Positions 5,387-36,467 of a stretch of DNA of 64,000 nucleotides are shown here, piece by piece (position 1 is the stretch's first letter; each line of letters starts with the position of its first letter). The stretch comes from Methanobacteriota archaeon (GTDB taxonomy: Archaea; Thermoplasmatota; Poseidoniia; Poseidoniales; Poseidoniaceae). A model generated the notes under the pieces. The model saw only the letters and a program-made list of their open reading frames with translations, was not told where the DNA came from and ran no database searches. Both the position numbers and the translations under genes were made by a program. The stretch is taken from the NCBI GenBank assembly GCA_002720275.1, contig PBHR01000023.1:21600-85599 (forward strand), read 5' to 3'.

Positions 5387-5444
5387 AATACTCGCTAAGA
5401 TAATTTGGATTTGATTGCTTTGGACAATCTAATTAATTTAAATT

Positions 5445-5487
5445 AAAATTATTCAATTGGAATATTAATTTCCCAATTGGAAAATTC
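5445..5487 (+). promoter_or_regulatory. composite CAATTG element, copy A (two CAATTG boxes 20 bp apart around ATTAATT)
   Basis: Sequence is aaaattattCAATTGgaatATTAATTtccCAATTGgaaaattc, with boxes at 5454-5459 and 5474-5479. It is near-identical in architecture to copies at 37902-37944 and 55843-55885, and lies ~120 bp upstream of the Roadblock gene. Confidence 0.6.
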
Positions 5488-5603
5488 AAAAAATAAGAAA
5501 ATAGGTTTTGGAAATAGAAATTAATCACATAAATCAATATTCAAACTAAAAAATCCCCCCAAATCTCTTGAACTAGTCTGCACACTGAGGCATCTAGAGG
5601 CGT

Positions 5604-5948
5604 ATGTTACAACGGTTGTTATCGTCATTTTGTAATATCCCAAGTGTTCGATTTGCTGCAATTATCGATAATATTGGGAATGAATTGATGCAAACTTATA
5701 GTAGTAAAAGACAAGACGTTTCATTTATGGACTTTGGCGGCCTGTTGCATACAATTGATATGAGTTCGAAATTATGTGATATGGGAGATGCTAATCAATG
5801 CTGGATTGAATCGGAAAACGGGACTATTTTTTTATGTGCATTACCAGATAGGAAATACATTGGTATTTTAACAGATGAAAATCCGAATATAGGCCGAATA
5901 AGTTACGAGTTAAATACAAAAAAAGAAGCAATCGCTCAATTAATTTAG
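5604..5948 (+). CDS. Roadblock/LC7 (MglB-like) domain protein
   Basis: This 114-aa protein is colinear with the Robl_LC7 pattern: ...IPSVRFAAIIDNIGNEL...CWIESENGTIFLCALPDRKYIGILTDENPNIGRISYEL. Confidence 0.7.
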   Translation: MLQRLLSSFCNIPSVRFAAIIDNIGNELMQTYSSKRQDVSFMDFGGLLHTIDMSSKLCDMGDANQCWIESENGTIFLCALPDRKYIGILTDENPNIGRISYELNTKKEAIAQLI

Positions 5949-5962
5949 GTTAGGTGGAAGAA

Positions 5963-8900
5963 ATGTTTAGTTTACCCTTGGGAAGTGAAGAAAAAAAGAA
6001 TGTGGCATCTGATTTAGAAATAAACAGCAGTGAAATTGATTATGGAGTAATAAGTTATTATTTACCTAAAACTAAAACACCTTGTGGTTACAGGTTAATT
6101 GCTGGAAGTGAAATTGTTGGATGTTTGGCAAAATCAGGAAAAAAGAAAAATTATATTGGTGCTAAAGAAGCAATAGACGAACTTAAAAAAGTCAGTAAAA
6201 AGAATAAATTAAGAACTTTAAGATCTACTTGGTCACAAAAAGAATTTGCCGAAGTTGCTCTTTTAGTACCTGCAGCATTCTATGATATTAATTCCCTTGC
6301 AGGAATCTCAACAAAACAATCATTTTCAAGCGGGTTTGATTCATTACAAGCAAGTTCATTTGTTGATACTCTTACAGAAAGATCTTCCGTAATAGGTGCT
6401 TTAGCTTCTGAAAAAGGTATGCCGATTCATTCAAAAGGAGAATTACCTGGAAAAATTGAAGATGTTGCTACTACAATCAAATCTGAATTAGATCGTTCAT
6501 CAAAAGTAGTAAATAAACTAGAATTACCAACATTAAATAGAATTTCAATGCATATGCAAGATGGTTCTTTACTAATGATGAGAATTGAGGGTTTAGACAT
6601 AGTTGCTTGGGTTTCAGAAGGTGCAGATCATGATGCAATAATAATAGATTCAATAGCAAAATTAGATTCTATGCAGGATACAAATATTGCTGATGATGAC
6701 GGAAGTATGCTTGAAGAAGGACTTAGTAGCCTTGAGCGTAAAGGAGGTTTGGATAATTTACTTTCTATGTTATCTAGAGGAAACTCTGAGTCAATTAGTG
6801 GATACATTAGGGTTGAAAATGATGAGGATCTTTTAGATATTTTGATCAGCAAAGGAATCCCAGTTGGTGCACGTTCAAAAAAGCAATTATCTGTAAAAGA
6901 TGTCGCATATAAGTCTACAGCACCTAAAGCAAAATTAACATTATTTTCGCTTCCAAAAATTGAACGGATGAGCACTCATTTGAATACAACAAAAAAATTT
7001 AGCCTCAATTCTTTCTGTAATCATATTTCTAAATCTAGAACAAGATCAAAAGATAGAGAAAAACAAATTAACAAACGATTAATGAAAATGTTTGGTTTTG
7101 CCATTGGTATTGAAGATTTAACAGAAAGCCTTGGAGAATGGACATTAAAAGAAAAGAAAAATGCTGGCGCGAAATTAGTTCCTAAAGCACAAAGTGGAAA
7201 AATGCTAATGCCAACATCTGTCGTAGATTCTAAAGAATTTGATAAAATTAAACAAGAACAAGCACGCCTAATTAAAGAAGTTGCTAAAATGGAACGACAG
7301 CGTGACGATGTAAAAGCATCATTTGATGCTTCAAAAATAGAAGTTGATGGAATGAGGGCAAGAATTTCTGAAATGCAAAAATTAAATTCTGGAAGTGTTG
7401 ATCAAATCTCACAATTAAAAATAGATTTAAGAGAGGCAACTAACGGTCAAGAATTAGCATTAAACCGCAATGAAAGTTTAACTCAAAGAATTAAAGAATT
7501 AGAAAAACAAGTAGAACATAGAATTGAAGAATTATCCCAAGCAGTAGGTGAATCTGAAAGTAGGGAAAAATTACAAAAAATGGTTAGTGATCTTTCTGAG
7601 CAAGAAATCAGATTAAAATCAGAAGTTGAAGCAGGAGATATAAGATTAAGACAGTTGAGGGCATCAATTGATGCAGATGACAGAAGACATAGAATGGTTG
7701 CAGATCAACTTGAAGCGCAAAGAGAAAGACATCGGCAAGCAACTGCAATTTCAAATGAATTAGAAAGAAGAATTGAAAGTCAAAATAAAGAGTTATTAGA
7801 TTTAGATGCTGAAGCAACATCACATAGGAAACTAATGGGAGAAGAAAGAGCACATTTCTTAGATTCTGAAAGGCGTTTAGGTCATTTACACGCTGAAGTT
7901 AAAGAATTACATGAAGAAAGGCGTAGATTAATGAGAGAATTAGGTGACTTAAGTGGTAGAAGAGCCGAAGCTGAAACTGAAGTCAATAATTTAATTTCAA
8001 CCGCTGAATCATTAAAAGATGCACATGATGCAGCATTATCTGATATAGATGAAGCAAATACAATAAGAGCAAAATTACGTGATGAACCTTTAGCACAAGC
8101 ATTATTGGGACAAGATCATGGTTTTTCATCACTCGCACCAATAATGCAAAGACTAGATCGAATGAGAGAGTTAGGTTATAGTTTAACATTAATGGATAGA
8201 GCAATAGAAAGAGGATTAACAATAATTCAACACAATGTAGACAATGTTGCAAAAACTCCAAGATATCTATTATCAACTGAAGTTATGGATTTATTACAAT
8301 CACAAACACCAGAAACTGCAAGTACAATTAGAGGTCTCACAAATTGGTCTGTACGCCAACGTTTGGAAAGTAAATTAAAAGAAATCGTTCAATTAGTTGT
8401 TTTAGACTTAGAAGGGTTATTAGATGAATTCGAACGATCTACCACATTATTGAGAAAAATGAGACAAATGATTACTCAACTTGAAGAATTAGGAGTTCCA
8501 AAAGACACCCTCTACAGACTTGAAGCACTTTGTAATAGACCTGAAGCATTGCCACATATAGCAAATAATCTACGGGAGACAATTCAATCGGCACTAGATT
8601 CAATATACTTAGAAGCTGATCAAGGTGATGCGGGAGTTGCGGTAGTAATGGAAAAAACTGCAAGTTCCTTAGATGAAGCAATGAAACAATTAGATGAAAC
8701 TGGTTTAACATTTGGCTCGAAAAAACCTACACAACTTTGGATTTTCCAAGAAAATGGGCTTCTACCCCATGAAGATATTAAATTAGAGTCTGAGAGACCT
8801 TCAGTATCTGAAGAAATAATCAGAGAACTAAACCCTCATAATGCAAGTAATGCTGAGAGTATTGAAGTTAGTAAAGATGCCGTAAATGATGAAGACGGAT

Positions 8901-9115
8901 GGACTTCTATGGAAATTGATACAACTAAAGAAAATCAAGTATCAAATAATACTGAAACAGACGTTTCAATTGAAGAAAATAGTAGGATTGCAATTGATGC
9001 TGAATTAGCAAAATTAGATCATGCATGGGAACGTAGAAACATTAATTCAGAAGTAGAAGAGGAAGAAGACCCTCTAAATGAATTAAATAATGAAGTTGAA
9101 AAATTCGATATTTGA
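5963..9115 (+). CDS. giant protein with an N-terminal region containing a Roadblock-like domain, a ~285-aa coiled coil, a helical C-terminal domain and an acidic tail
   Basis: The long ORF is not interrupted by any competing frame. Residues ~135-237 (VIGALASEKGMPIHSKG...ISMHMQDGSLLMMRIEGLDIVAWVSEGAD) look Roadblock-like, and residues ~426-710 are heptad-rich in E/R/K/L. I prefer ATG 5963 (AGGTGG 5 nt upstream) over the track's GTG 5954. Confidence 0.75.
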   Translation: MFSLPLGSEEKKNVASDLEINSSEIDYGVISYYLPKTKTPCGYRLIAGSEIVGCLAKSGKKKNYIGAKEAIDELKKVSKKNKLRTLRSTWSQKEFAEVALLVPAAFYDINSLAGISTKQSFSSGFDSLQASSFVDTLTERSSVIGALASEKGMPIHSKGELPGKIEDVATTIKSELDRSSKVVNKLELPTLNRISMHMQDGSLLMMRIEGLDIVAWVSEGADHDAIIIDSIAKLDSMQDTNIADDDGSMLEEGLSSLERKGGLDNLLSMLSRGNSESISGYIRVENDEDLLDILISKGIPVGARSKKQLSVKDVAYKSTAPKAKLTLFSLPKIERMSTHLNTTKKFSLNSFCNHISKSRTRSKDREKQINKRLMKMFGFAIGIEDLTESLGEWTLKEKKNAGAKLVPKAQSGKMLMPTSVVDSKEFDKIKQEQARLIKEVAKMERQRDDVKASFDASKIEVDGMRARISEMQKLNSGSVDQISQLKIDLREATNGQELALNRNESLTQRIKELEKQVEHRIEELSQAVGESESREKLQKMVSDLSEQEIRLKSEVEAGDIRLRQLRASIDADDRRHRMVADQLEAQRERHRQATAISNELERRIESQNKELLDLDAEATSHRKLMGEERAHFLDSERRLGHLHAEVKELHEERRRLMRELGDLSGRRAEAETEVNNLISTAESLKDAHDAALSDIDEANTIRAKLRDEPLAQALLGQDHGFSSLAPIMQRLDRMRELGYSLTLMDRAIERGLTIIQHNVDNVAKTPRYLLSTEVMDLLQSQTPETASTIRGLTNWSVRQRLESKLKEIVQLVVLDLEGLLDEFERSTTLLRKMRQMITQLEELGVPKDTLYRLEALCNRPEALPHIANNLRETIQSALDSIYLEADQGDAGVAVVMEKTASSLDEAMKQLDETGLTFGSKKPTQLWIFQENGLLPHEDIKLESERPSVSEEIIRELNPHNASNAESIEVSKDAVNDEDGWTSMEIDTTKENQVSNNTETDVSIEENSRIAIDAELAKLDHAWERRNINSEVEEEEDPLNELNNEVEKFDI

Positions 9116-9126
9116 GGTGAAAAATC

Positions 9127-9378
9127 ATGAAAGAAGAGCTTAACAAGCTCACATTAATTGGGAGAACGGAGATCAAAGGTAAAAGATATCCAATTTTTTT
9201 AGAACGGTTCGGTTTACTTTTTTCAATAATTTTAACTATTTTTTTAACATTTACAATTTGGAATGAATTTGAAGAATACATTTGGTTAAATGTTTTATTA
9301 AGTATTTGTTTTGCACCTTTATTTGCTTTATCAATGGCAGAAATAATAGGTAGATTAATTCAATATTTACAGAATTAA
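9127..9378 (+). CDS. small membrane protein (two predicted TM helices)
   Basis: GAGGTGA lies 6 nt upstream of the ATG, directly after the stop of the giant gene. There are two hydrophobic stretches (LLFSIILTIFLTFTIW and LNVLLSICFAPLFALSMAEII). Confidence 0.6.
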   Translation: MKEELNKLTLIGRTEIKGKRYPIFLERFGLLFSIILTIFLTFTIWNEFEEYIWLNVLLSICFAPLFALSMAEIIGRLIQYLQN

Positions 9379-10571
9379 TATTCTTCTTGAACTGGTGAAT
9401 TATCAATAGGCCTTTTTTGGTATAATGATTCTATTACACCACTAATTCTTTGCCATGGTAGAATATACCTTAATCCCGCTAACAATAATAAGAATAATAA
9501 TGCAGAGATTACCAAACCATAAGTTAATTCTAATTCAATTGACTCTTGAATCTGATAAGCCCACTGACCATCTCCTGGCAATGCAGCAACAATAGACAAT
9601 AATAGAGTATGGAAACCTAAGGCGATTATTGTTGTGATTCCACAAAGAGTCATTAATGCAATAGTTTGTATCATATGCCCATTTAACAAATTATAAAATT
9701 GTGTAACGTATTCTGGATCCTTTTTACAAGTTTCTGGTAATCTAAATGCATATTCAAGATAACGAATAACCCCCATAGAGGACTCTTGGAAAATTATCAG
9801 CAATAATGAAAGTTGTAAAAGACTAAACTGATTAGGGCTAATTAATCCCAAAATTGTAGGTTCCCCTGCCAAAGAGGGTATTTTCTTTAATCCGCCACTT
9901 GAAGCTGCAAATAATAAATCTTCAACGACTTGGAACGTTAATAATGCATGTAAAATTAAAAATAATAACATAATGCCAGTTGACCAAGCAATAGCACCTT
10001 TAGAAAGACCCCAAATCCCTCGAATTCCCATTACTAAAGGTATAATGTATATTCCAATCAAAATAATTTCTAATACAACTATAACGCCCTTGAATAGAGA
10101 CTCTACTGATTCATCTGGAGGAATCCACCAGTCTCCTTTACCAAAATTAGCAAATAACCATTTCATCAAAAAGGGGCCAAATAGCCACAATACAAATGCC
10201 AATAATAAACCTAAACGAATCCTACGTTGAATAATCGGATTTTGAAATGTTAATGCAGCCATCCCTCCACCAATTATAACACTCAAAACCATTATTGGAT
10301 AAAATCTGCCAAGACCGTTTGCTTCTTCACCTGTTAGCCATGCTGGTAACGGCATTTCCAAATTGGCTGAGGTTAATTGTTTATCAAAAAATTCAATTGC
10401 CATGGCATGATCTATTGAATCTACAATATACAAGTCTACCATTTTCAGATACATCCAAAGTAATGCAATCGTACTAATTAATTGTAAAGTTACTACTTGC
10501 CATTGTATTCTTAATAACCTCAAATGTAACGTTCGCATTCCTTCTTGTTGAGGTTGTACATCATCTGCCAT
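9375..10571 (-). CDS. polytopic integral membrane protein, unknown function
   Basis: Contains many hydrophobic segments. GAGGTGAT lies 5 nt upstream of the ATG, immediately downstream of the DUF58 gene, which suggests operon coupling. Confidence 0.7.
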   Translation of the reverse strand: MADDVQPQQEGMRTLHLRLLRIQWQVVTLQLISTIALLWMYLKMVDLYIVDSIDHAMAIEFFDKQLTSANLEMPLPAWLTGEEANGLGRFYPIMVLSVIIGGGMAALTFQNPIIQRRIRLGLLLAFVLWLFGPFLMKWLFANFGKGDWWIPPDESVESLFKGVIVVLEIILIGIYIIPLVMGIRGIWGLSKGAIAWSTGIMLLFLILHALLTFQVVEDLLFAASSGGLKKIPSLAGEPTILGLISPNQFSLLQLSLLLIIFQESSMGVIRYLEYAFRLPETCKKDPEYVTQFYNLLNGHMIQTIALMTLCGITTIIALGFHTLLLSIVAALPGDGQWAYQIQESIELELTYGLVISALLFLLLLAGLRYILPWQRISGVIESLYQKRPIDNSPVQEEY

Positions 10572-10582
10572 TTTATATCACC

Positions 10583-11836
10583 TCAAATATCCTTCACTTG
10601 CAATAATGCCTGAGATAATTCTACATCGGGCATCCAATCAATTACAGAGGCTCCAAAACCTGCTAAACCTGTTAATCTATTTTGTCGTTCAAGTTTTAAA
10701 ACTTCATAACTCATACGAGGAATTCTACTAACCAATCTTTCAAAGTCTAAACTTGAAGGGGATAAAATGGTAACCTCATGACCTCTTCCAACAAGATCCC
10801 TAACTGCATTTGGAACTGTCCCATCCCCTTCAATACTACTGATTATGAAAACTGGAGAGCCTCTACTAAATCTTGGTGATAATGAATTTGTAACAGCTTG
10901 AAGAGGCATTGAACCTTTAGGTACAACCCCAGCCAAACTACTTAATATCTTGAAATATTGCTTATCTCCCGTATCTGCTGGAAGATAAGAAACTCCATCA
11001 TCGTAAATTGCTAAAGCGACACTATCTCTTCTTTTAATGAAGAAAGAAGCCAAAGAAGCTGCTGCTACTGCGCCCATTTCAAGTGGATTTTTTAGAACTG
11101 TTCCAATTCTACTAATATCTCTACTATCTAAAATTATGAATAAATCTGTCACCGCATCACGACATTTTTCATTTACCATCAACTCTCCAGTTCTAGCAAA
11201 CGCTTTCCAATTTATATTCTTAAACGGATCACCTGTAACATATTCCCTTAAACTATAAAATTCTGAACCTGGGCCTGGAGTTCTTAATGTTGAAGCACCA
11301 GTGTACATTTTTGGAGTACGACTTCGAATAAATGCTTCTTCAACATCCCTCACTTGTGGAAATACAATTAGGTCACTATGATGACTAACAAACATTTCTT
11401 GTGCAAATAAATTAAATGTGTTCCTAAATCTAATACTAATGGGCCCTATTGAATAATGACCTCTAAGTGGACACCTTAATGAATATCTGATTCTAGTACT
11501 TTGACCCGGGCCTAAATTAACTCTCATATAATTTAAACCACTTCTTAATTTCATTTCATGAGGGACATTATCATAAATCTCTAACTGCTGAGTACGCCTC
11601 ATTGAACGGTTAGTAATTCTTAATTCAACAAACAAATCATCTCCTTTATACAAATTATCTGCTGATAAAATTCTTTGAACCTCAACATTGCCATGGCCTT
11701 TAATCCAACCATTTAATACTGTAAAAGCAACAAAAGTTAATCCTATTACCATTAACTGAAAATTAGAAATCATCATTCCAATTAATACTAATGAAATACC
11801 TCCCGTAATACTGAATGCTGCTTTTCTTGTCCACAT
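10583..11836 (-). CDS. DUF58 family protein (vWA-like, usual MoxR partner)
   Basis: Has the hallmark LREYVTGDPFKNINWKAFARTGELMVNEK motif and two N-terminal TM helices. Confidence 0.8.
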   Translation of the reverse strand: MWTRKAAFSITGGISLVLIGMMISNFQLMVIGLTFVAFTVLNGWIKGHGNVEVQRILSADNLYKGDDLFVELRITNRSMRRTQQLEIYDNVPHEMKLRSGLNYMRVNLGPGQSTRIRYSLRCPLRGHYSIGPISIRFRNTFNLFAQEMFVSHHSDLIVFPQVRDVEEAFIRSRTPKMYTGASTLRTPGPGSEFYSLREYVTGDPFKNINWKAFARTGELMVNEKCRDAVTDLFIILDSRDISRIGTVLKNPLEMGAVAAASLASFFIKRRDSVALAIYDDGVSYLPADTGDKQYFKILSSLAGVVPKGSMPLQAVTNSLSPRFSRGSPVFIISSIEGDGTVPNAVRDLVGRGHEVTILSPSSLDFERLVSRIPRMSYEVLKLERQNRLTGLAGFGASVIDWMPDVELSQALLQVKDI

Positions 11837-11842
11837 ATTTCA

Positions 11843-13492
11843 TCAACCCTTTTGCCATGCTTTAATTCTTTTAACAATCGCAACCGTTTGCTCAAGATCA
11901 TATTTTTTATTTTCAAATACAAATTTAACTAAAACCGGATCCTTAATCATCTCTTGTAATTCTTGAGCGGGCATACGATCAAATTCCTCACGAGATAATG
12001 CGTTTAAATTTCTAACCCTCGATAAAAATACTTGTTTTATTTTATTTGTTCTCGTGTAATAACCATACCTTTTTGCATCCCCAAATCCATAATAAATTAT
12101 ATTAAAAATATGCCTCCAAGGTTCAGGATCTGTTTTCTTAATTAACACTGCTTCAAATGCTAAAAATAGCAATATAAACAACAATAACATTCCAATTCCA
12201 TCGCCTGTCAAATAAACTAACAAAAAGTAAATTAAATTATAAGCATCCGTAAATAAAACATTTTGGCTATGTCTACTTTCATCAAAAATCACCATTGCGT
12301 CACTACTCGCTACAATCGCTTCTTTATTTGTGAAATTATTCGCAGTTAAAACGGATTCTGCAATAACATCTAAAGCCCACTTTCTATTATCATTCTCTGG
12401 GATATTTGTAATTGATTTGCCATCCTCGTCAAATTCTCCAGAATTTGCAGATTCAAAACTATATACTGCATTAATTAAAGCACTACCGTCACTAATAAAA
12501 TAAATTCTTCCAGCACTAGAATCTGAACAATCGGAAGAATCACAGGTTTCAATATAAACATCAAAGGGTCCTTGTGAATCTGCCTCTGATTGCGCTGTTT
12601 CAGTTTCAAGAGTTATTTTTCCATCATTATTCAAATCTAAATAAGATTGAGGACTAGAACGACCTACTGCTTCATAGTAAGAAAAATCACCTGAAAATTC
12701 AATTGACTCAAATGCAGACGGGGCATTAAGTAATAAATTGTAATCATGATGATACTCTATCATTTTACTTGTTGAATTATAATGATGAGCACATAAACCT
12801 GCTTCTTCTTTTGTAGCAAATGTAATTTCACTTTCGGCCCATCTTGAACATGGATGCATTCCTGTTCCTGTAGGATCTGTTCCCTGATGCCACCTTGAAT
12901 GACCAATATGAAATTCATCTGAATTTTCCCAATCTGTATGGTTTTGACTTATGTTCATCCATACATAGTTGTAATCTAATTCAACTGCATATTCGTCATC
13001 ATAGAGCCTATGGTTACTATAACTAATTCCAACTGCATCTGCAAGGCCACTTGAATAACCAAAATCATCTAAAACAATTACCGTACCACCTCTAGAAACA
13101 AAGTTCATAATAGCTGAAATTTCTGAAGTACTATACCCTTCGGGTTCACTAAAACTAATAAATGAAGAATCAGAACCTATTGAAGGTAATGAAAATGTAT
13201 CTTTTTCTACACCACTTATTACAAATGTAGAATTTGTCGGGTTTTCTATTTCATTTAACAATAAAGGACTTGAAACCAAACTTTTCGTATTAATTCCTAA
13301 ATCAGATATTTCTTTCCTAAATTCTGAAATGTCATCCCAATCGTTATCATAAGCAGAAAGTTGCTTTGTATTTCCTAAATTTACATAACTTGAGAGTAAA
13401 AGAAAAAGAAGAAATAATAGAGCCACATAAAAACTAGAAATTAATGCACGGCGTTGATATTTTCTGAAACTCTTTCTAACCAACATTAGCAC
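11843..13492 (-). CDS. membrane-anchored protein with a large extracytoplasmic domain (DUF4350-like)
   Basis: Has an N-terminal TM, a ~400-aa N-x-S/T-rich domain, a C-proximal TM pair and a cytoplasmic tail. Its position directly upstream of DUF58 matches the archaeal DUF4350-DUF58 arrangement. The family call is tentative. Confidence 0.55.
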   Translation of the reverse strand: MLMLVRKSFRKYQRRALISSFYVALLFLLFLLLSSYVNLGNTKQLSAYDNDWDDISEFRKEISDLGINTKSLVSSPLLLNEIENPTNSTFVISGVEKDTFSLPSIGSDSSFISFSEPEGYSTSEISAIMNFVSRGGTVIVLDDFGYSSGLADAVGISYSNHRLYDDEYAVELDYNYVWMNISQNHTDWENSDEFHIGHSRWHQGTDPTGTGMHPCSRWAESEITFATKEEAGLCAHHYNSTSKMIEYHHDYNLLLNAPSAFESIEFSGDFSYYEAVGRSSPQSYLDLNNDGKITLETETAQSEADSQGPFDVYIETCDSSDCSDSSAGRIYFISDGSALINAVYSFESANSGEFDEDGKSITNIPENDNRKWALDVIAESVLTANNFTNKEAIVASSDAMVIFDESRHSQNVLFTDAYNLIYFLLVYLTGDGIGMLLLFILLFLAFEAVLIKKTDPEPWRHIFNIIYYGFGDAKRYGYYTRTNKIKQVFLSRVRNLNALSREEFDRMPAQELQEMIKDPVLVKFVFENKKYDLEQTVAIVKRIKAWQKG

Positions 13493-13814: not shown

Positions 13815-16067
13815 TCAAACTGATTCCATGCCTCTTTGTGTATCCTTACCTCTACGAACAGTACTTAAACCACTAACTAGTAAAGATTCCATTTTCTTAT
13901 AATATTCTAACATATCATCGGTCACAGTAGGCCTAACCATATTCAAAGCCTTTTCAAAATGTGCCTTTGTCACCGTTTTCTTAGACTCCCTCATTGCTGT
14001 CAATGCTGCTTCTCTACATACTGATTCAACATCAGCACCAGTAAATCCTTCCATTTTTTTAGATATGTCTCCAATATTAAATTTACCTAAAGGCATCCCC
14101 TCACAATGAATTTTGAAAATTTCTCTTATCGCCTTAGCATCTGGAGGAGGTACATGTAAAACTCTTTCAAACCTACCACTTCTAATCAATGCAGGATCTA
14201 TCATCTCGGGTCTATTTGTAGCAGCAACAACAATAACACCATCCAAAGATTCTATTCCATCCATACTAGCAAGTAATTGATTTACCACCCTGTTACCAGA
14301 CTGAGTTCCACCCCCATCCATCCCTCTAGAGGACCTTGAATGAGCAATACTTTCGAATTCATCCAAGAAAATTATAGATGGTGATGCTTGTTTAGCCTTC
14401 TTGAAAATTTCACGAATTCCTCTTTCTGATTCACCGACCCATTTACTAATCATCTCAGGTCCTTTAATTGAAATGAAATTCGCTTTAGCCTCATTTGCTA
14501 TTGCCTTAGCTAGCAATGTTTTTCCTGTTCCTGGTGCCCCAAATAATACAATTCCTCTAGGTGGTTTAATTCCAAAATGATCAAATAATTCGGGTTTTGT
14601 TAATGGCCATTCGACACTTTCTTTAAGTCTATTTTTAATTTCTTCCAATCCGCCAACTTTATCCCAACCTATTTCAGGAATCTCAACATAAATTTCTCTT
14701 AAAGCACTAGGTTCAACTTCCCTTATTGCTAATTTAAAATCATCCATAATTACTTCCATTTTTTCAAGGACCTCTGGAGGAATTACTTCGGCATCCAAAT
14801 CAATCTCTGGAAGATATCTTCTTAATGCCTTCATCGCAGCTTCTCTAACTAATGCTGAAACATCTGCTCCCACAAAGCCATAAGTATTTTCTAAAATCCA
14901 TTCAATATCAAAATCATCACTTAGGGGCATTCCCCTCGTGTGTACATCTACGATTTCAGCTCTACCATTTCTATCTGGAACTCCAACTTCTATTTCTCTA
15001 TCAAATCTACCTGGTCTACGTAAAGCAGGATCTATTGCATCTCTACGATTTGTTGCACCAATAACAACAATATTATCACGGCCTTGCATTCCGTCCATCA
15101 ATGTTAACAATTGAGCAACTACTCTTCGTTCAACTTCTCCTGTTACATCTTCTCTTTTTGGTGCAATACTATCTAATTCATCAACAAAAACTATTGCAGG
15201 GGAATTTTCAGCAGCATCATCAAAAATTTCTCTAAGTTGTTTTTCAGATTCACCATAATATTTACTTATTATTTCAGGGCCATTAATTGATTTAAAATGA
15301 GCATTTGTTTCTGTTGCTACAGCTTTAGCAATCATAGTTTTACCCGTTCCAGGAGGGCCATGAAGCAAAACTCCTTTTGGAGGACTAATACCTAATCTAC
15401 GAAATAATTCCGGATGTTTTAAAGGCAACTCAATCATTTCTCTAACTTTTTGTAATTGATTTCCTATTCCTCCAATGTCTTCATAAGTTATTCCTTCTGA
15501 GTCTGCAGAAGATTCTTCATCAACCTGTTCATCTTTAATGACGATTTCAGTTTCTGGTAAAACTTGAACTATCCCCTTAGGGGTCGTAGAACGAACTGCA
15601 AATGGCAATGTCTCTGCAAATAAGGTAATTCCTGGAATAAATATTCTATCTCCTGCAACTACTGGTCTCTTGTTCAAACCTCTTCTTGCAAAACCTTCAA
15701 TATTTGGACCAAATTGCATTGCTGATGGTTTATTTTTACTTTGTTTATTTACCATAACCGGTGAAAGTACTAACTTTTTACAAGGAATTGCTTCTACCTT
15801 TCTAATTTCGACTTTGTCTCCTAAAGATACTCCCGCATTTTTCCTAACGATTCCGTCAATTCTTACAATATCCATTTTACTATCTTCGGGTCGACTTCTC
15901 CAATATGTCGCTGCAGTCATTCCCGTTTCCCCTTTAATTTCAATAATATCTCCCGGTTTTAGGCCAAGTTCATTGTCACTTGAAATTCTCGCTCTTCCAA
16001 AACCTACATCACTTGGTATTGCTTTAGCTATTCTTAACTTTAGAACATCCGAACCTTTAGTAGCCAT
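13815..16067 (-). CDS. cdc48: CDC48/VCP-type AAA+ ATPase (two AAA domains)
   Basis: Has an N-terminal CDC48 N-domain-like region, two Walker A motifs (GPPGTGKT and GAPGTGKT) and two DExx Walker B motifs, in 750 aa. Confidence 0.95.
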
Positions 16068-16176
16068 AATGACCTCTCCGACATTACTCGTTAATTTTAG
16101 GAATCCCTTAAACCCACTGTTTTCTAAAAGCCATAATTACATCAAGTTCATCATTGTGAGTTGTTTCGGACGTGCC

Positions 16177-17805
16177 ATGCCCGCTGTACTTGAAACCGGT
16201 TTAGACTTCGTTGAATCTAATAACGAAACCAATTTGCCATGTGTTAAAGGATATAATATTATTAATGGACAATTAAAAGTCGCAAGTGATCAAAAAACAT
16301 TTGAAAGTATTAATCCTGCAAATAAAAATGATTGTTTAGGAGTTTTTCCATTATCAACAAAACAAGATATTGATGACGCTATTTCCGCAGCAAGTACTGC
16401 TTTTACAAAATGGTCAAACACTCCTGCCCCCACTAGAGGTCAAATTATTGGAAATATGGGGCGATTGTTAATGGATTACAAGGAGGATTTAGTTCGCTTA
16501 CAATCTCGTGAAATTGGTAAAACAATCAAAGAATGTGGTGGAGAAATTCAGGAAGCGATTGATACTTGCCTATTCTTCCAATCAGAAGGGCGCAGACTCT
16601 ATGGACAAACTGTCAATTCTGAATTGCCTAACAAAGAATTATTCACATATCGAAGGCCTTTGGGGGTTTGCGGAATCATCAATGCTTGCAACTTCCCCTC
16701 CGCTGTTCCATTCTGGAAAATGATTCCAGCAATTATGTGTGGAAACACCTGTGTTTGGAAGTCTCCACAAGATGCACCCCTTCTTTCATTTGCATTGGCT
16801 AGAATTATGCATCAAGCTGGACTACCTAATGGTGTAATAAATTTAGTTCATGGAAAAGGTAGTGGAGCTGGACAACACATTATTGATGCTGTAGATGAAG
16901 GTAAAATAAACAAAATTAGTTTTACTGGAAGTACAGAAGTGGGTAAAAAGATTGGCGAGGTTTGTGGAAGAAATCTAGTATCGTGTTCATTAGAACTTGG
17001 TGGTAAAAACCCGCTTGTTGTAATGCCCTCTGCGGACATGGAAAATGCTGTTCAAGGGGCTTATTGGGCTTCTTTTGGAACTGCTGGACAAAGATGTACA
17101 AGTTTAGGGAATCTGATTCTGCATGAAGATATTTATGATAAGTTTATGGCTAAATTTATGGAAAAAGTTATTGCCACACCTATTGGAGATTCTTCTAAAT
17201 TTGAAGGTATGATATATGGACCAATGCTTTCTGAAAAATATGCATCTGATTTCCTTAAAACCATAGAAAAAGTAGAGAAAGATGGAGCAAGGAAATTATT
17301 TGGTGAAGGGAGAATAACAAATGATCTTTGCCCAGGAGCATTTCATGGAGATGCATCTAAAGGAATTTACATGTGGCCACATGTATATGTTGATGTTACA
17401 GAAGAGATGGACTGTTTCTATGAAGAGATTTTTGGACCAGCAGTAACTATTGTAAAAGCAAAGGATTTTGATCATGCTTTACATTTAGCTAATGCATCTC
17501 CTTACGGACTTTCAAGTGCAATTTATACTAATGATCGACTTGAAGCTTACAGATTTAAAAATGAAATTAAGGCTGGAATGACTAGTATAAATAATTCAAC
17601 AACTGGTGCAGAAGCACACTTACCGTTTGGAGGAGTGAAAAACTCAGGGAATGGTACTAGAGAATCAGGGATATGGGTTATTGAAGCATATTCATATTGG
17701 CATGCAGTTAATGACGAATTGAGTGGCAAACTACAATTAGCTCAAATGGATGTTGATGAAATTGAAATGTCTAAAAAAGAAGTTGATTGGGCAGAGTTAG
17801 CATAA
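16177..17805 (+). CDS. NAD(P)+-dependent aldehyde dehydrogenase
   Basis: Contains ELGGKNP, the catalytic GQRCTS and EIFGPA motifs. The start is set to ATG 16177 (alternative GTG 16156) because the upstream part of the 711-aa track ORF is antisense to cdc48. Confidence 0.9.
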   Translation: MPAVLETGLDFVESNNETNLPCVKGYNIINGQLKVASDQKTFESINPANKNDCLGVFPLSTKQDIDDAISAASTAFTKWSNTPAPTRGQIIGNMGRLLMDYKEDLVRLQSREIGKTIKECGGEIQEAIDTCLFFQSEGRRLYGQTVNSELPNKELFTYRRPLGVCGIINACNFPSAVPFWKMIPAIMCGNTCVWKSPQDAPLLSFALARIMHQAGLPNGVINLVHGKGSGAGQHIIDAVDEGKINKISFTGSTEVGKKIGEVCGRNLVSCSLELGGKNPLVVMPSADMENAVQGAYWASFGTAGQRCTSLGNLILHEDIYDKFMAKFMEKVIATPIGDSSKFEGMIYGPMLSEKYASDFLKTIEKVEKDGARKLFGEGRITNDLCPGAFHGDASKGIYMWPHVYVDVTEEMDCFYEEIFGPAVTIVKAKDFDHALHLANASPYGLSSAIYTNDRLEAYRFKNEIKAGMTSINNSTTGAEAHLPFGGVKNSGNGTRESGIWVIEAYSYWHAVNDELSGKLQLAQMDVDEIEMSKKEVDWAELA

Positions 17806-21402: not shown

Positions 21403-21672
21403 CTAATCTTGGTGTTCAATACCTTGTTTCTTAACATTAGCTTTCCAAACCATATCTGGTAACCAATCTGGACCATTTGCTGGCTTAGGCACTTGTTTTC
21501 TTTCGCCTGTGAAAACGTGTATACGTTTTGTTCCACGTTCTCTTAAACGAATGTCAATCTTTCCTCTAGAAGCCGCTTTTAAAGCAGCACCACGAGGTTG
21601 CGCACTTGCAAACACTTGACTTGTGTCTGCTCCTCCTTCCATTAGTACGAAGTACTTCTTGTTTTTTGCCAT
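21403..21672 (-). CDS. chromosomal protein MC1 family (non-histone archaeal chromatin protein)
   Basis: The 89-aa protein MAKNKKYFVLMEGG...QPRGAALKAASRG...IRLRERGTKRIHVF...PDWLP is colinear with Methanosarcina MC1 as I recall it (RNFVLR...QPRQAALKAANRG...IRLRERGTKKVHVF...PDWMP). The upstream 70 codons of the track ORF are rejected. Confidence 0.8.
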   Translation of the reverse strand: MAKNKKYFVLMEGGADTSQVFASAQPRGAALKAASRGKIDIRLRERGTKRIHVFTGERKQVPKPANGPDWLPDMVWKANVKKQGIEHQD

Positions 21673-21705
21673 GAGATATTCCTCGCTGGCACTCAAACAA
21701 AGGAC

Positions 21706-21713
21706 TTTATAAA
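21706..21713 (-). promoter_or_regulatory. candidate TATA box for the MC1 gene
   Basis: TTTATAAA lies 33 nt upstream of the MC1 ATG. The sequence is palindromic, so its orientation is not informative. Confidence 0.35.
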
Positions 21714-21850
21714 GTAATCTGTAAAAAAAGGGATACTGTAGCCTATTTTCAACATGTTTCAGAGTTACGGATACCCTTGAATTATGACTTGTATTACCGA
21801 AGTCAATATGTAGGACGGCCTCACCTCCGAGGTCTGTGGCAGAATTACTA

Positions 21851-22453
21851 ATGAAGCGGACTTGCAAAAATGGAATTCTCAAAGTCTTTTATGGGGACCT
21901 ATCAAAACACGAGGCTGACTTAATCGCTACTCCTTCAGATAATAGACTATCTGGGAGAGAAGGAATAGATGCAAAAGTGTATGACGTTGCTGGTGAAGAA
22001 TTAAGAGAAGCATGTAAAGAAATTGCAATAGAACAAAGAAAATTAAATTTATCTCCTTGCCCAGTATCTTCTGCAAAATTTAACAATTCGTTTAACCTCA
22101 AATCGAAATATTTGTTGCATGTTGTAAGTCCTGATTGTAGACGTCCAGTACAAGATCAAAATAGAAGAGAACTATTACCAAAAACATATGAATCTATGTT
22201 TTCAGCAATTCAAAGTAAAAAAGATGTGAAAATAGTAGCTGCAGCACCATTTTCAATGGATATTTTTTCTTATCCTCATAGAGAGGGGGCGAAAATGACT
22301 TTCAGTTTACTACTAGAATGGCTAAATAGTGAAGAATGTAATATTGAGGAATATCACATGATCGTATTGAACAAGAATTTTATTGATGCCATGCGCACAG
22401 TGTATAGAGAAACCGAAGATCAACTTCCAGGAAGAGATACTACAGATGAATAA
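21851..22453 (+). CDS. macro domain protein (ADP-ribose binding/hydrolase-like)
   Basis: VFYGDLSKHEADLIATPSDNRLSGREGIDAKVYDVAGEELREAC matches the macro-domain pattern GDIT...DAIVNAAN..L.GGGGVD.AI..AAG..L..EC. ATG 21851 is preferred to the track's GTG 21836. Confidence 0.6.
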   Translation: MKRTCKNGILKVFYGDLSKHEADLIATPSDNRLSGREGIDAKVYDVAGEELREACKEIAIEQRKLNLSPCPVSSAKFNNSFNLKSKYLLHVVSPDCRRPVQDQNRRELLPKTYESMFSAIQSKKDVKIVAAAPFSMDIFSYPHREGAKMTFSLLLEWLNSEECNIEEYHMIVLNKNFIDAMRTVYRETEDQLPGRDTTDE

Positions 22454-28599: not shown

Positions 28600-30687
28600 A
28601 TGGAGGGAGAATCTTTGCGTCCTACTTCTCAAATCAAAGAAATGTTAGGAGCAATGAAAGATCAATGGCAATCAATGCTTGGAATGGCTGTAATGTTTGT
28701 AATTACAATTTTAATTGGAATCATCATTCAACCATTTTATGATAAGCCTGAATTTCGAGCATTTGGTGAAGCTGGAGCAAGTCAAGCCAGAAATATTTTA
28801 CTTGAATTTGTGATGATTCTAATTTTTACAGCTCTAATAATTTTCTTGGCAAAATGGAAAAAAGATTGGATAATAAAGTATGGAATTCTAGGTATTTTAT
28901 TTATTGCGCTATGCTATGCTACAATTCCACTAACTAATCTAGTGATTTCCGAAACTCCAGAACCTTTAGAATTTGATTCAACGCCAACAATATATGAAAT
29001 AATACATCAACATAATGATGGTTTTTATGCATCACAAAAACTCGTAAATAAAACTACAGGTGACATTACAGGATATGCATTTTATTCTTTTTCTAATGCT
29101 TACAATGATTCTGGAATTGCCCCAATAAATATGTTACATCAAGGTATTGTTTTTGAATCAAATAAAGAAGCCTTGAAGTTTTCAAAATTTTCAGACGGCA
29201 TAATTGTGTGTGATGGCGAACAATTTATGAAAATTGACAATGATTTTGATGTTTCTACAAAATTAAATAAAAATATTGATTGTATGTTTGGGTTCAGTTC
29301 TAATCATAGTGATTGGTATCTCAATACAAATAATAAATTAAGGCAAATAGGTACAAATGAAAGTTATAGTATTCCTAATTTCATCATTAATGAAAGTACA
29401 ATTAGTGTTTGGAGCACAAATAATAATCAGTTAATTTGGATTACTGAAAACCGATTTGCACTACTAAATCTACCAAATGAACATAGTAATTTAACTATTG
29501 AATTTGAAGAATCATATCAATCAAAAATCACTACTGCGACATTTGGATCTTCTTTATGGCAAGACTCTGCTGTTGAACAAAAATTGTTAATTTTAGGTGA
29601 TGAAAATGGAAACCTAACTGCTTGGAACATTGATACTGAAAATAATTCTATTCCCGAAATGGAAACAAGACTAAATCTAGGTTCTGATTTTTTTAATGGC
29701 TCTATTAAATCAGTTTTATTAGCTAATTTTAACAATTATGCACAAGATGAATTATTCGTAGTCGATCAAAGTAATTTTAGAATGTTCAGAGGAAGTAGTT
29801 TAGTTGAACAAATAAATATGTCAATCGATTTTGAAGATCGCACAAATTTAGCATTATCAAATACATCAATCAATTCTGTAGATTCTGTAGTTATTATACA
29901 AACAAGTAACGAATGGAAATATGTAAACATTAGTGAAAACCAATTTCAACTTGTAAATGAGTGGGCTTTCTTGATTGGATTTTGTTTGTCTATTCTACTT
30001 ATGATTCTGCTTTACATTAGACCTGAGTGGTATGTAGTAAATCTAGTTGGAATCTTAGTTGGTGGGGGCGTAGTTGCAATGTTAGGAATTTCATTTGTTC
30101 CATGGCTAATTATTATTTTTATGATTGTGGCTGCGATATATGATGCATGGGCCGTGTACAAATCAAAACACATGCTTGATTTGGCAGATACAATGGTTAA
30201 CCTAAAATTGCCAATATTGTTAGTTGCCCCACAAGAGAAAAATTATTCATTCCTTGATGAACAAGATACTATGAGAGATCGGGAAAAATTAATACCAAAG
30301 CCTATTGTAATTCAAAAAGCGGGAATTAGTAAGTCCTCAGAAGATAAAAGCGTTAAGATGGATAAACCTCGTAAAAAGAAAGATCGTGGAAAAGATGCGA
30401 TGTTTATGGGCTTAGGAGACGTCATTTTTCCTGGTATTTTAGTAATCTCAGCAATTACCTGGCTACCTGAAGGAACGATTATTTTAGGAGTGGATGCTAC
30501 ATTTTGGATTGGAATTCTAACAATGATAGGAGGTTTGTGTGGTTATTTCATTTTAATGGGTTATGTTGCATTAGGAAAACCTCAAGCAGGATTGCCTCTA
30601 CTAAATAGTGGAGCAATCCTTGGGTATCTAATCTCTACAATTCTTCTACTTGGAATTGGTGCTTTAGAATTCAATATTTCATTTTAA
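28600..30687 (+). CDS. presenilin/signal-peptide-peptidase-like (A22 family) intramembrane aspartyl protease with a ~340-aa ectodomain insertion
   Basis: Has the YD motif (VAAIYDAWAVY) and the GxGD motif (FMGLGDVIFPG) in adjacent TM helices, a PAL-like GLPLL motif and about 9 TM segments. A long N-x-S/T-rich beta-type region sits between TM3 and TM4. Confidence 0.7.
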   Translation: MEGESLRPTSQIKEMLGAMKDQWQSMLGMAVMFVITILIGIIIQPFYDKPEFRAFGEAGASQARNILLEFVMILIFTALIIFLAKWKKDWIIKYGILGILFIALCYATIPLTNLVISETPEPLEFDSTPTIYEIIHQHNDGFYASQKLVNKTTGDITGYAFYSFSNAYNDSGIAPINMLHQGIVFESNKEALKFSKFSDGIIVCDGEQFMKIDNDFDVSTKLNKNIDCMFGFSSNHSDWYLNTNNKLRQIGTNESYSIPNFIINESTISVWSTNNNQLIWITENRFALLNLPNEHSNLTIEFEESYQSKITTATFGSSLWQDSAVEQKLLILGDENGNLTAWNIDTENNSIPEMETRLNLGSDFFNGSIKSVLLANFNNYAQDELFVVDQSNFRMFRGSSLVEQINMSIDFEDRTNLALSNTSINSVDSVVIIQTSNEWKYVNISENQFQLVNEWAFLIGFCLSILLMILLYIRPEWYVVNLVGILVGGGVVAMLGISFVPWLIIIFMIVAAIYDAWAVYKSKHMLDLADTMVNLKLPILLVAPQEKNYSFLDEQDTMRDREKLIPKPIVIQKAGISKSSEDKSVKMDKPRKKKDRGKDAMFMGLGDVIFPGILVISAITWLPEGTIILGVDATFWIGILTMIGGLCGYFILMGYVALGKPQAGLPLLNSGAILGYLISTILLLGIGALEFNISF

Positions 30688-35186: not shown

Positions 35187-36467
35187 ATGCCGTCACAATG
35201 GGAAGATAAAAGCAAAACGCACCTAAACATGGTGTTTATTGGTCATGTAGATCATGGAAAATCGACGACAGTAGGACGTCTATTGTTAGATAGTGGTCAC
35301 ATTGAACAACACGTAATTGAAAAAAATGAAAAGCTTGCAAGTGAACAAGGAAAAGCAGGTTTTGGTCTAGCTTATGTAATGGATGGATTAAAAGAAGAAA
35401 GAGAAAGAGGAATTACAATTGATGTTGCTCATAAAGAATTCTTTACACCAAACTATTACTGGACTATCATAGATGCACCAGGCCACAGAGATTTCGTTAA
35501 GAATATGATCACTGGAGCAAGTCAAGCCGATGCTGCAGTACTACTTTGTGCTGCTAATGATGGTGTAAATGCACAAACTAAGGAGCATGCATTCCTAGCA
35601 CGTGTATTAGGTGTTTCACAATTAATTGTTAATGTAAACAAAATGGATATTTCTGGTGTTGATTGGTCAGAAGATAAGTATAAAAAAGCATGTGATGAAG
35701 TTAGTAATTTACTAAAAGTCGCTGGTTTTAATCCTGCAGATGTTCCAATGATTCCATGCTCTTCATTAAATGGGGATAATATTTTCAATAAATCAGATAA
35801 AACACCTTGGTACTCAGGACCTACTCTTTTCGAAGCTATTGATGCAGTAAGTATGCCACCAAAACCAATCGATAAACCATTAAGATTACCAATTCAAGAT
35901 GTTTACAAAATTGGCGGCATAGGAACAGTGCCAGTAGGAAAGGTTGAAACTGGGGTACTAAACTCTGGTAAAACCGTTGTTTTCAATCCAAGTGGTAAAA
36001 GTGCAGAGGTTAAATCAATTGAAATGCACCATACAATAGTAGATAAAGCTGAACCAGGAGATAATGTTGGTTTCAACTGCCGTGGACTTTCAATTCAAGA
36101 CATTAGAAGAGGAGATGTTGCAGGATATTCAGATAAAGCTCCTGTATACGTAAGACATGATGAAACATTTGTTGGCAATATCCAAATTATGGATATTCCT
36201 AAAGCGATCTCTGTTGGATATACTCCAGTATTCCACTGTCACACAAGCCAAGTAGCTGTTAAATTTGTAGAGTTAATGAAGAATCTAAAAGATGGTTCAA
36301 CTCCTTCTTTCTTAAAGACTGGAGATGCTGCAACCGTTAAGTTCCAACCTACAAAACCAATGGCTATTGAAACTAAAGATGATTTCCCTGAATTATGTAG
36401 ATTCGCAATCAGAGATATGGGTAAAACTGTTGCTGCTGGTATGTGTATCGCTATTCAAAAGAAATAA
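35187..36467 (+). CDS. tuf: translation elongation factor aEF-1 alpha
   Basis: Contains [17 protein letters not shown] and NKMD GTPase motifs, and is followed by rps10 as in archaeal str-type clusters. Confidence 0.97.

Follow-up and report, generated by a model that had tools for sequence, protein, structure and literature searches.

We describe a three-gene operon in a 64,000-nucleotide stretch of DNA from a Methanobacteriota archaeon (GTDB lineage Archaea; Thermoplasmatota; Poseidoniia; Poseidoniales; Poseidoniaceae; GenBank assembly GCA_002720275.1, contig PBHR01000023.1, positions 21,600 to 85,599 of the forward strand), referred to below as the window. The operon encodes a small Roadblock/LC7 protein, a multidomain protein of 1050 amino acids (aa) that carries a Roadblock domain of its own (hereafter the giant), and a membrane mini-protein. 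Our tentative reading, which we hold to be possible rather than probable, is that these genes, specific to Poseidoniales, encode a coiled-coil scaffold built on Roadblock domains and anchored at the membrane. The scaffold mechanism is one that we infer from domain content and gene arrangement. The three genes are as follows.

5604-5948, forward strand: gene 1, a divergent single-domain Roadblock/LC7 protein of 114 aa
5963-9115, forward strand: gene 2, the giant, a multidomain protein of 1050 aa from the ATG at 5963
9127-9378, forward strand: gene 3, a protein of 83 aa with two hydrophobic segments

Operon layout

A preliminary description of this DNA had proposed three tightly spaced open reading frames (ORFs) on one strand; all three are present, with the start of the giant moved. 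Spacers within the operon are 11-14 nt long and are accompanied by Shine-Dalgarno-like sequences. As listed, the giant ORF opens at a GTG at 5954 and would encode 1053 aa. Because all homologues compared open with MF.LP.G, we place the start at the ATG at 5963, which lies 14 nt beyond the gene 1 stop and is preceded at 5 nt by AGGTGG. Residue numbers of the giant are counted from this ATG, except for the predicted helix limits given below, which follow the GTG 5954 numbering. The Shine-Dalgarno-like GAGGTG of gene 3 overlaps the stop codon of gene 2 and lies 7 nt before the gene 3 ATG. The giant is not a chance ORF, because it runs for 1050 codons in AT-rich DNA (window GC ~33%) and its length and sequence are conserved across many metagenomes.

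The product of gene 3 has a basic N-terminus, two hydrophobic segments read off the sequence and, towards its C-terminus, the conserved motif P[LF]xALxxAExIGRxIQ. Its identity across the family is 31-60%. The mini-protein had been described as having two membrane segments and a Shine-Dalgarno sequence, and the two hydrophobic segments and the GAGGTG agree with this. When all three gene products were scanned against Pfam and NCBIfam, nothing emerged beyond Robl_LC7 below its cutoff and coiled-coil noise.

Two divergent Roadblock domains

Roadblock/LC7 domains form homo- or heterodimers that serve as platforms, as in MglB, LAMTOR2/3, LAMTOR4/5, the C-terminal domains of Rag proteins and dynein LC7. 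On profile evidence we accept the gene 1 product as a divergent member of this superfamily. Against Pfam Robl_LC7 (PF03259) it scored E 0.12 and 12.6 bits over the whole model, and its orthologues reached 16.7 bits at best (E 0.006 in a distant orthologue). A profile built from close orthologues returned four Roadblock structures amid noise from the PDB. When the alignment (A7) included orthologues at 39% and 29% identity from related loci, the PDB search gave five matches in all, every one a Roadblock/LC7 protein (5/5) aligned over residues ~3-105 of 114: Rv3364c (9hef, E 2.2e-5), a Thorarchaeota Roadblock protein (7f8m, 1.4e-4), 7yh1 (3.4e-4), CvnB5 (3leq, 4e-3) and 9jue (0.034). Joint Genome Institute (JGI) annotation of gene 1 orthologues reads 'Roadblock/LC7/MglB family'. 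The earlier assignment of the 114-aa protein to Roadblock/LC7 is thus borne out by a family profile that retrieves Roadblock structures only.

Homologues of the giant are all 1020-1089 aa long and share an identical layout. Two AlphaFold2 (AF2) models were available, one of the full giant with 11 homologues (predicted local distance difference test, pLDDT, 58) and one of the N-terminal 423 residues (pLDDT 60). The parts of the protein are listed below, all on the forward strand; a linker joins domain 3 to the rod.

6035-6277, forward strand: domain 1, aa ~25-105, a four-stranded beta unit, then helix-strand-helix; AF2 pLDDT 55-80
6353-6640, forward strand: domain 2, aa ~131-226, a divergent Roadblock/LC7 domain, by profile
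6713-7135, forward strand: domain 3, aa ~251-391, a beta-alpha-beta-beta-beta-alpha-beta unit plus helices; pLDDT 80-91
7223-8077, forward strand: coiled-coil rod, aa ~421-705, ~285 residues with three conserved breaks and heptad periodicity
8078-8782, forward strand: all-helical C-terminal domain, aa ~706-940, where conservation in the giant is highest
8783-9115, forward strand: acidic tail of low AF2 confidence, net charge ~-10 to -12 per 56 aa

Domain 2 was confirmed as a Roadblock domain at moderate significance, at the position where the preliminary description had seen one. The profile of the giant family (A6) found CvnB5 (3leq) as its top PDB match (E 4.3e-4, positions 133-226), followed by six LAMTOR4 sequences (E 1.1-1.6, residues 131-215). 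The homologue P0039 matched Robl_LC7 at E 6e-4 and 19.9 bits, with residues 132-215 aligned to model positions 4-89 of 91, and other distant homologues matched at the same place (P0042 at E 0.05, P0041 at E 0.06, others up to 0.11), as did the family consensus (E 0.013, 15.7 bits). Foldseek with the full giant model gave weak matches to Roadblock2, p14/MP1 and a Thorarchaeota Roadblock protein (probability 0.57-0.77, E 0.15-0.85); against the PDB, nothing at E <= 0.001 was returned for either model. Foldseek matches to the tri-longin proteins Mon1/Ccz1 (E 0.05, TM-score <0.1) were judged unreliable.

The two domains flanking this Roadblock domain were assigned to no family. Domain 1 has zero Pfam, NCBIfam or PDB matches. 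Domain 3, with invariant residues G262, G280, G298 and P300, has no Pfam, NCBIfam or PDB match and nothing significant by Foldseek, and a PDB search with a shallow N-terminal profile found nothing. A DUF4388-like segment had also been suggested here. The resemblance is a by-eye pattern of glycines and hydrophobic residues only, and DUF4388/PATAN (PF14332) found no support for domain 3: it gave no match at E <= 10 in 11 close members or in the domain-3 consensus and none at E <= 1 in 9 distant members, which leaves no match to this Pfam model across 20 family members and the consensus. Apart from this element, the initial interpretation stands in its two Roadblock assignments, its domain order and its tight operon.

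The peptide MFxLPxG at residues 1-7 of the giant (window 5963-5983) is almost invariant among members that are ~30% identical overall, with P5 and G7 invariant. Such conservation suggests a docking or processing motif.

A coiled-coil rod and a strongly conserved C-terminal domain

Heptad periodicity and AF2 helix prediction agree on the ~285-aa coiled coil that had been proposed. Between residues 421 and 700, hydrophobic residues recur every 3.5 residues with z-scores of 2.3-8.4 in overlapping 56-residue windows, except at 449-504 (z 1.5); in the N-terminal 420 residues, z is <= 2.4. AF2 places rod helices at 427-498, 502-529, 535-663 and 671-710, making the rod nearly continuous over 427-710. 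If extended it would be ~40 nm long, and it bears conserved charged motifs such as ELMEERRxLLRELGDL.

The rod is followed by the helical domain and acidic tail foreseen in the preliminary description, and AF2 models, conservation and the charge profile all agree with that part of the layout. Mean column identity in the C-terminal domain is 92% among close homologues, and the domain is 48-58% identical to divergent members found by searching with the C-terminal part. In alignment A5 most invariant columns fall within it, although distant full-length members are 30-38% identical overall. It has no detectable relatives beyond the family: the best hit of a PDB profile search had an E of 3, and Pfam and NCBIfam returned nothing. 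Two short helices in the tail are conserved: IDxELAxLD and, at the very C-terminus, LxELExELxDxE[LI].

These features bear on whether the giant is instead a self-assembling cytoskeletal or intermediate-filament-like rod (compare crescentin, FilP and Scy), with the Roadblock head and the small Roadblock protein regulating assembly and the membrane protein providing attachment. We consider this unlikely. A segmented ~285-residue heptad rod with three conserved breaks between a non-coiled head and tail is what such a filament would look like, and the family is present across the order, but the giant has no sequence relation to any filament family. Conservation is moreover highest in the globular helical C-terminal domain and not in the rod, which suits a binding module better than a lattice former.

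The rod also attracts weak matches to known coiled-coil proteins. NCBIfam SMC and Rad50 models match only residues ~408-707, scoring 36 bits where the cutoffs are 567-1087, and the PADLOC JetC model gives a match of coiled-coil type (E 0.038, 9.7 bits). Beyond JetC, no known anti-phage defence system in PADLOC matched the operon. Like SMC and Rad50 proteins the giant has a long heptad-repeat region, but it lacks their ATPase head, Walker A motif and hinge, and it is not a member of that family. A scan agreed with the initial observation that the giant contains no GxxxxGK[ST]. SMC/Rad50 and JetC identities were therefore rejected on the ground that the matches are confined to the rod, lie far below cutoff and come with no P-loop. 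A check against known families, whether SMC, S-layer or other, found that the giant matches none.

Distribution and gene linkage

A word-indexed search recovered 11 full-length relatives of the giant at 53-95% identity, and a search with the C-terminal domain alone added further divergent members, one of them named Candidatus Poseidoniaceae. In an exhaustive HMMER search of 1.84 billion representative proteins with the N-terminal profile, 48 proteins were found at E <= 0.001; 12 of the 48 are full-length (1020-1089 aa) and align from residue 1, and the rest are shorter, mostly fragments. Genome matches were Marine Group II/Poseidoniales metagenome-assembled genomes (MAGs). A scan of a genome collection gave close relatives only, the derived patterns being too specific. 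By these searches the giant family is restricted to Poseidoniales and present across the order.

The order Roadblock protein, giant, membrane protein is kept with its tight spacing in all of the related loci that span the whole cluster (11/11), down to ~37% identity of the giant, which answers in the affirmative the question of whether the three genes co-occur in related genomes. In a twelfth locus (L006), cut by a contig end, the giant is still followed by the membrane protein. Linkage of the trio holds at L001, where the giant is 53% identical, and at L005, where it is 37% identical, and at both the flanking genes differ; L005 is without the upstream methyltransferase and nuclease and has an extra 205-aa gene downstream.

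The giant homologue at L005 (L005:8054-11311) contains an in-frame TAA (L005:9860-10060) where the intact homologue P0038 has Glu. The break reads QMIDH*TRAHQ against QMIDHETRAHQ in P0038, and the giant is called there as two genes of 628 and 436 aa. The TAA reflects either an error in sequencing or a nonsense mutation at strain level.

The linkage data also bear on whether the three genes are mere neighbours with no joint function, the giant being an SMC/Rad50-like or defence-related coiled-coil protein. That view, which we regard as highly improbable, could draw on the weak NCBIfam SMC, Rad50 and PADLOC JetC matches and on the synteny of the whole neighbourhood in close relatives. The matches, however, cover the coiled coil only. 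Unlike a defence island, the locus sits amid housekeeping genes (pyrBI, TtuA, Cdc48) and has been retained throughout the order. The trio moreover persists where its flanks differ; its spacers are 11-14 nt long, and one ribosome-binding site overlaps a stop codon.

Weighing a possible Roadblock-based scaffold

Several results weigh against the reading of the operon as a Roadblock-based scaffold. Neither the gene 1 product nor any of its orthologues reaches the Pfam PF03259 gathering cutoff of 23 bits; the giant of the window itself has no Robl_LC7 match, and its homologues and the family consensus all fall under the same cutoff. The Roadblock region of the giant (~125-240) is poorly predicted, with pLDDT <50 in both AF2 models, and Foldseek with the N-terminal model returned no Roadblock fold matches. 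No similarity between the gene 1 Roadblock profile and the Roadblock domain of the giant was detectable (hhalign probability <1%), and hhalign gave nothing significant when the gene 1 profile was compared with each of domains 1-3 of the giant or when these three domains were compared with one another. Gene order alone is weak evidence in close relatives because the wider neighbourhood is also syntenic there.

The operon encodes no GTPase. A search of the window in all six frames for Walker A motifs found no small GTPase gene, with GxxxxGK[ST] occurring only in Cdc48 (twice), in two inferred translation-GTPase ORFs and in chance matches. The two ORFs, EF-1alpha-like at 35187-36467 and aIF5B-like at 49745-51679, were assigned from their GHVDHGK[ST] motif and not from a family search. 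The related loci examined likewise contain no small GTPase gene, so that a Ras-like GTPase gene within a few genes of the Roadblock gene, the mark of an MglA/MglB-type system, is absent from the window and from these loci. The preliminary description had reported none adjacent, and its observation extends to the entire 64 kb.

Some Roadblock proteins act without a GTPase. Dynein LC7 is one, and Rv3364c, the best PDB match of the gene 1 profile, is labelled a protease inhibitor in the PDB. Genes of the MglB family are often 'orphans' uncoupled from a GTPase (328 of 749), none of which had been characterised as of 2014 (PMC4316618). The missing GTPase neighbour is less remarkable than first claimed, because orphan Roadblock genes are common (PMC4316618).

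The Roadblock pair might nevertheless be an MglB-like regulator, acting as GTPase-activating protein (GAP), guanine nucleotide exchange factor (GEF) or docking platform for a Ras-like GTPase encoded elsewhere, with the giant localising its activity as in MglA/MglB polarity or Rag/Ragulator. We rate this as somewhat unlikely. It accords with small GTPases being the best-known partners of Roadblock domains, with top matches that include CvnB5, LAMTOR4 and Asgard Roadblock proteins, and with the frequency of orphan, uncharacterised MglB genes. It sits less well with the lack of a small GTPase in the 64 kb and the related loci examined, with the GTPase-free action of dynein LC7 and Rv3364c, and with an archaeal MglA group that is almost exclusive to methanogenic Euryarchaeota (PMC4316618).

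For the membrane-anchored scaffold that we favour, the following arrangement can be envisaged. Because Roadblock domains act as dimers, the gene 1 product would pair with the Roadblock domain of the giant, forming a hetero-pair with domain 2 like LAMTOR2/3 or MglB/MglC-type pairs. The giant would dimerise through its coiled-coil rod. The two-pass gene 3 protein, with both ends predicted to be cytoplasmic by the positive-inside rule, would fix the Roadblock end to the membrane, and the C-terminal domain and terminal peptide, up to ~40 nm off, may capture cargo or a partner. No GTPase is encoded with the operon, and therefore such a platform would work without one or use one encoded elsewhere. 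A more specific version, in which a GTPase-independent Roadblock hetero-pair is the membrane-proximal foot of a ~40-nm coiled-coil tether whose distal domain grips a cellular structure such as the nucleoid, vesicles, or the machinery of division or of the archaellum, is speculative and in our judgement improbable.

Comparison with known systems

The operon has parts of a known kind, Roadblock platforms and coiled-coil tethers, but MglB/MglC, Ragulator and CvnB are each without this architecture and each come with a GTPase. Myxococcus MglB/MglC resembles it in having a small single-domain Roadblock/LC7 protein, in two different, adjacently encoded Roadblock domains that suggest a hetero-pair, and in coiled-coil partners of polar or scaffold type. 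It differs from the operon described here, where the 64 kb contain no mglA-like gene, adjacent or otherwise, the second Roadblock domain sits inside a 1050-aa protein and a membrane mini-protein is included; sequence similarity is at superfamily level only.

Ragulator (LAMTOR1-5) holds Roadblock hetero-pairs at a membrane through a small anchoring subunit, much as the proposed scaffold would, and weak matches include LAMTOR4 by sequence and p14/MP1 by fold. In place of a lipidated, wrap-around anchor, however, the operon would use a two-pass protein; it lacks a Rag-type GTPase, and it adds a long coiled coil and a conserved helical domain that is unrelated. Common descent is unsupported beyond the Roadblock fold.

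Streptomyces CvnB5 (3leq) is the best match of the Roadblock domain of the giant and also matches the gene 1 product. Like the operon, the conservon joins a membrane component to a Roadblock protein, but it comprises four genes including the sensor-kinase-like CvnA, the DUF742 protein CvnC and the MglA-like GTPase CvnD, and these three are absent here. Asgard Roadblock proteins (7f8m, 7yh1, 9jq8) are archaeal and single-domain and match the gene 1 product over its full length (E 1e-4 to 3e-4). They differ in being stand-alone proteins discussed with Asgard small GTPases, and fusion to a coiled-coil giant is not known from them.

Literature searches on Poseidoniales and archaeal Roadblock proteins, small GTPases and PATAN/DUF4388 found no description of this system. 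They agree with the earlier statement that no described counterpart in archaea was known. What is new, as far as the literature searched allows, is a Roadblock domain set between two unassigned domains and fused to a long rod and an orphan conserved domain, beside a second Roadblock protein and a membrane mini-protein, in one archaeal order.

Genomic context and other features of the window

The region upstream of gene 1 is as follows.

5387-5603, forward strand: intergenic region and presumed promoter region, 217 nt, AT-rich, 5' of gene 1 and divergent from a methyltransferase gene

The promoter role of 5387-5603 is one that we infer; a scan for bacterial sigma-70 promoters and terminators was uninformative for archaeal DNA. 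The 5' neighbours encode a GHMP kinase, pyrB/pyrI, an Exo_endo_phos (endonuclease/exonuclease/phosphatase) family protein, TtuA and the methyltransferase. On the 3' side the gene 3 stop overlaps by 4 nt the end of a convergent gene (9375-10571, reverse strand) for a 398-aa protein, followed on the same, opposite strand by DUF58, DUF4350 and Cdc48. This convergent group (9375-13492 and 13815-16067, reverse strand), comprising the 398-aa protein of no family, DUF58, a DUF4350-like protein and Cdc48, keeps its synteny with the operon at every related locus. Some relatives (L004, L005, L006) have a gene for an ~80-aa PRC-barrel protein between DUF4350 and Cdc48; the 322-nt gap at that place in the window holds no ORF of >=30 aa.

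Elsewhere in the window, a second long ORF (42053-44602, forward strand; 849 aa) has no Pfam family and is purine-rich (AT skew 0.275, GC skew 0.26). It consists of ~550 E/R/K/Q-rich, helical, coiled-coil-like residues, then a Gly-rich stretch and a Pro/Thr/Lys-rich tail. Close to it, an 802-aa ORF (44662-47070, forward strand), also of no Pfam family, has a signal-like hydrophobic segment at its N-terminus, carries numerous acidic repeats of the DxDxDG type (calcium-binding-like) and ends in a hydrophobic anchor and an acidic tail. Its product is probably a surface protein.

Some gene calls in the window deserve comment. The 711-aa ORF at 15670-17805 (forward strand, TTG start) is over-extended: its aldehyde dehydrogenase domain starts at residue 204, its 5' part overlaps Cdc48 on the opposite strand, and its orthologues are 511-542 aa long. 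In a 159-aa ORF (21403-21882, reverse strand), residues 75-159 make up a chromatin protein MC1 domain; this ORF has either an N-terminal extension or a TTG start called too far upstream. A presenilin/signal-peptide-peptidase domain lies in residues 449-681 of a 695-aa ORF (28600-30687, forward strand), in the C-terminal third only; the long stretch before it has no assignment.

Implications for Marine Group II

Marine Group II ranks with the most abundant archaea of the surface ocean; to our knowledge none of its members has been cultured and their cell biology is uncharacterised. The giant is among the larger proteins of Poseidoniales genomes, with no homologue outside the order in the 1.84 billion proteins searched, and its operon joins the Roadblock fold, a widespread regulatory and scaffold fold, to a rod and an end domain under strong constraint. 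If the operon does encode a membrane-tethered scaffold, it would provide a first handle on cell organisation in Marine Group II. It would further exemplify Roadblock pairs that act without a linked GTPase, within the 'orphan' class (PMC4316618). Should the ~40-nm tether be real, prokaryotes would have a device for tethering or polarity unlike any described, built on the fold used by eukaryotic Ragulator and dynein.

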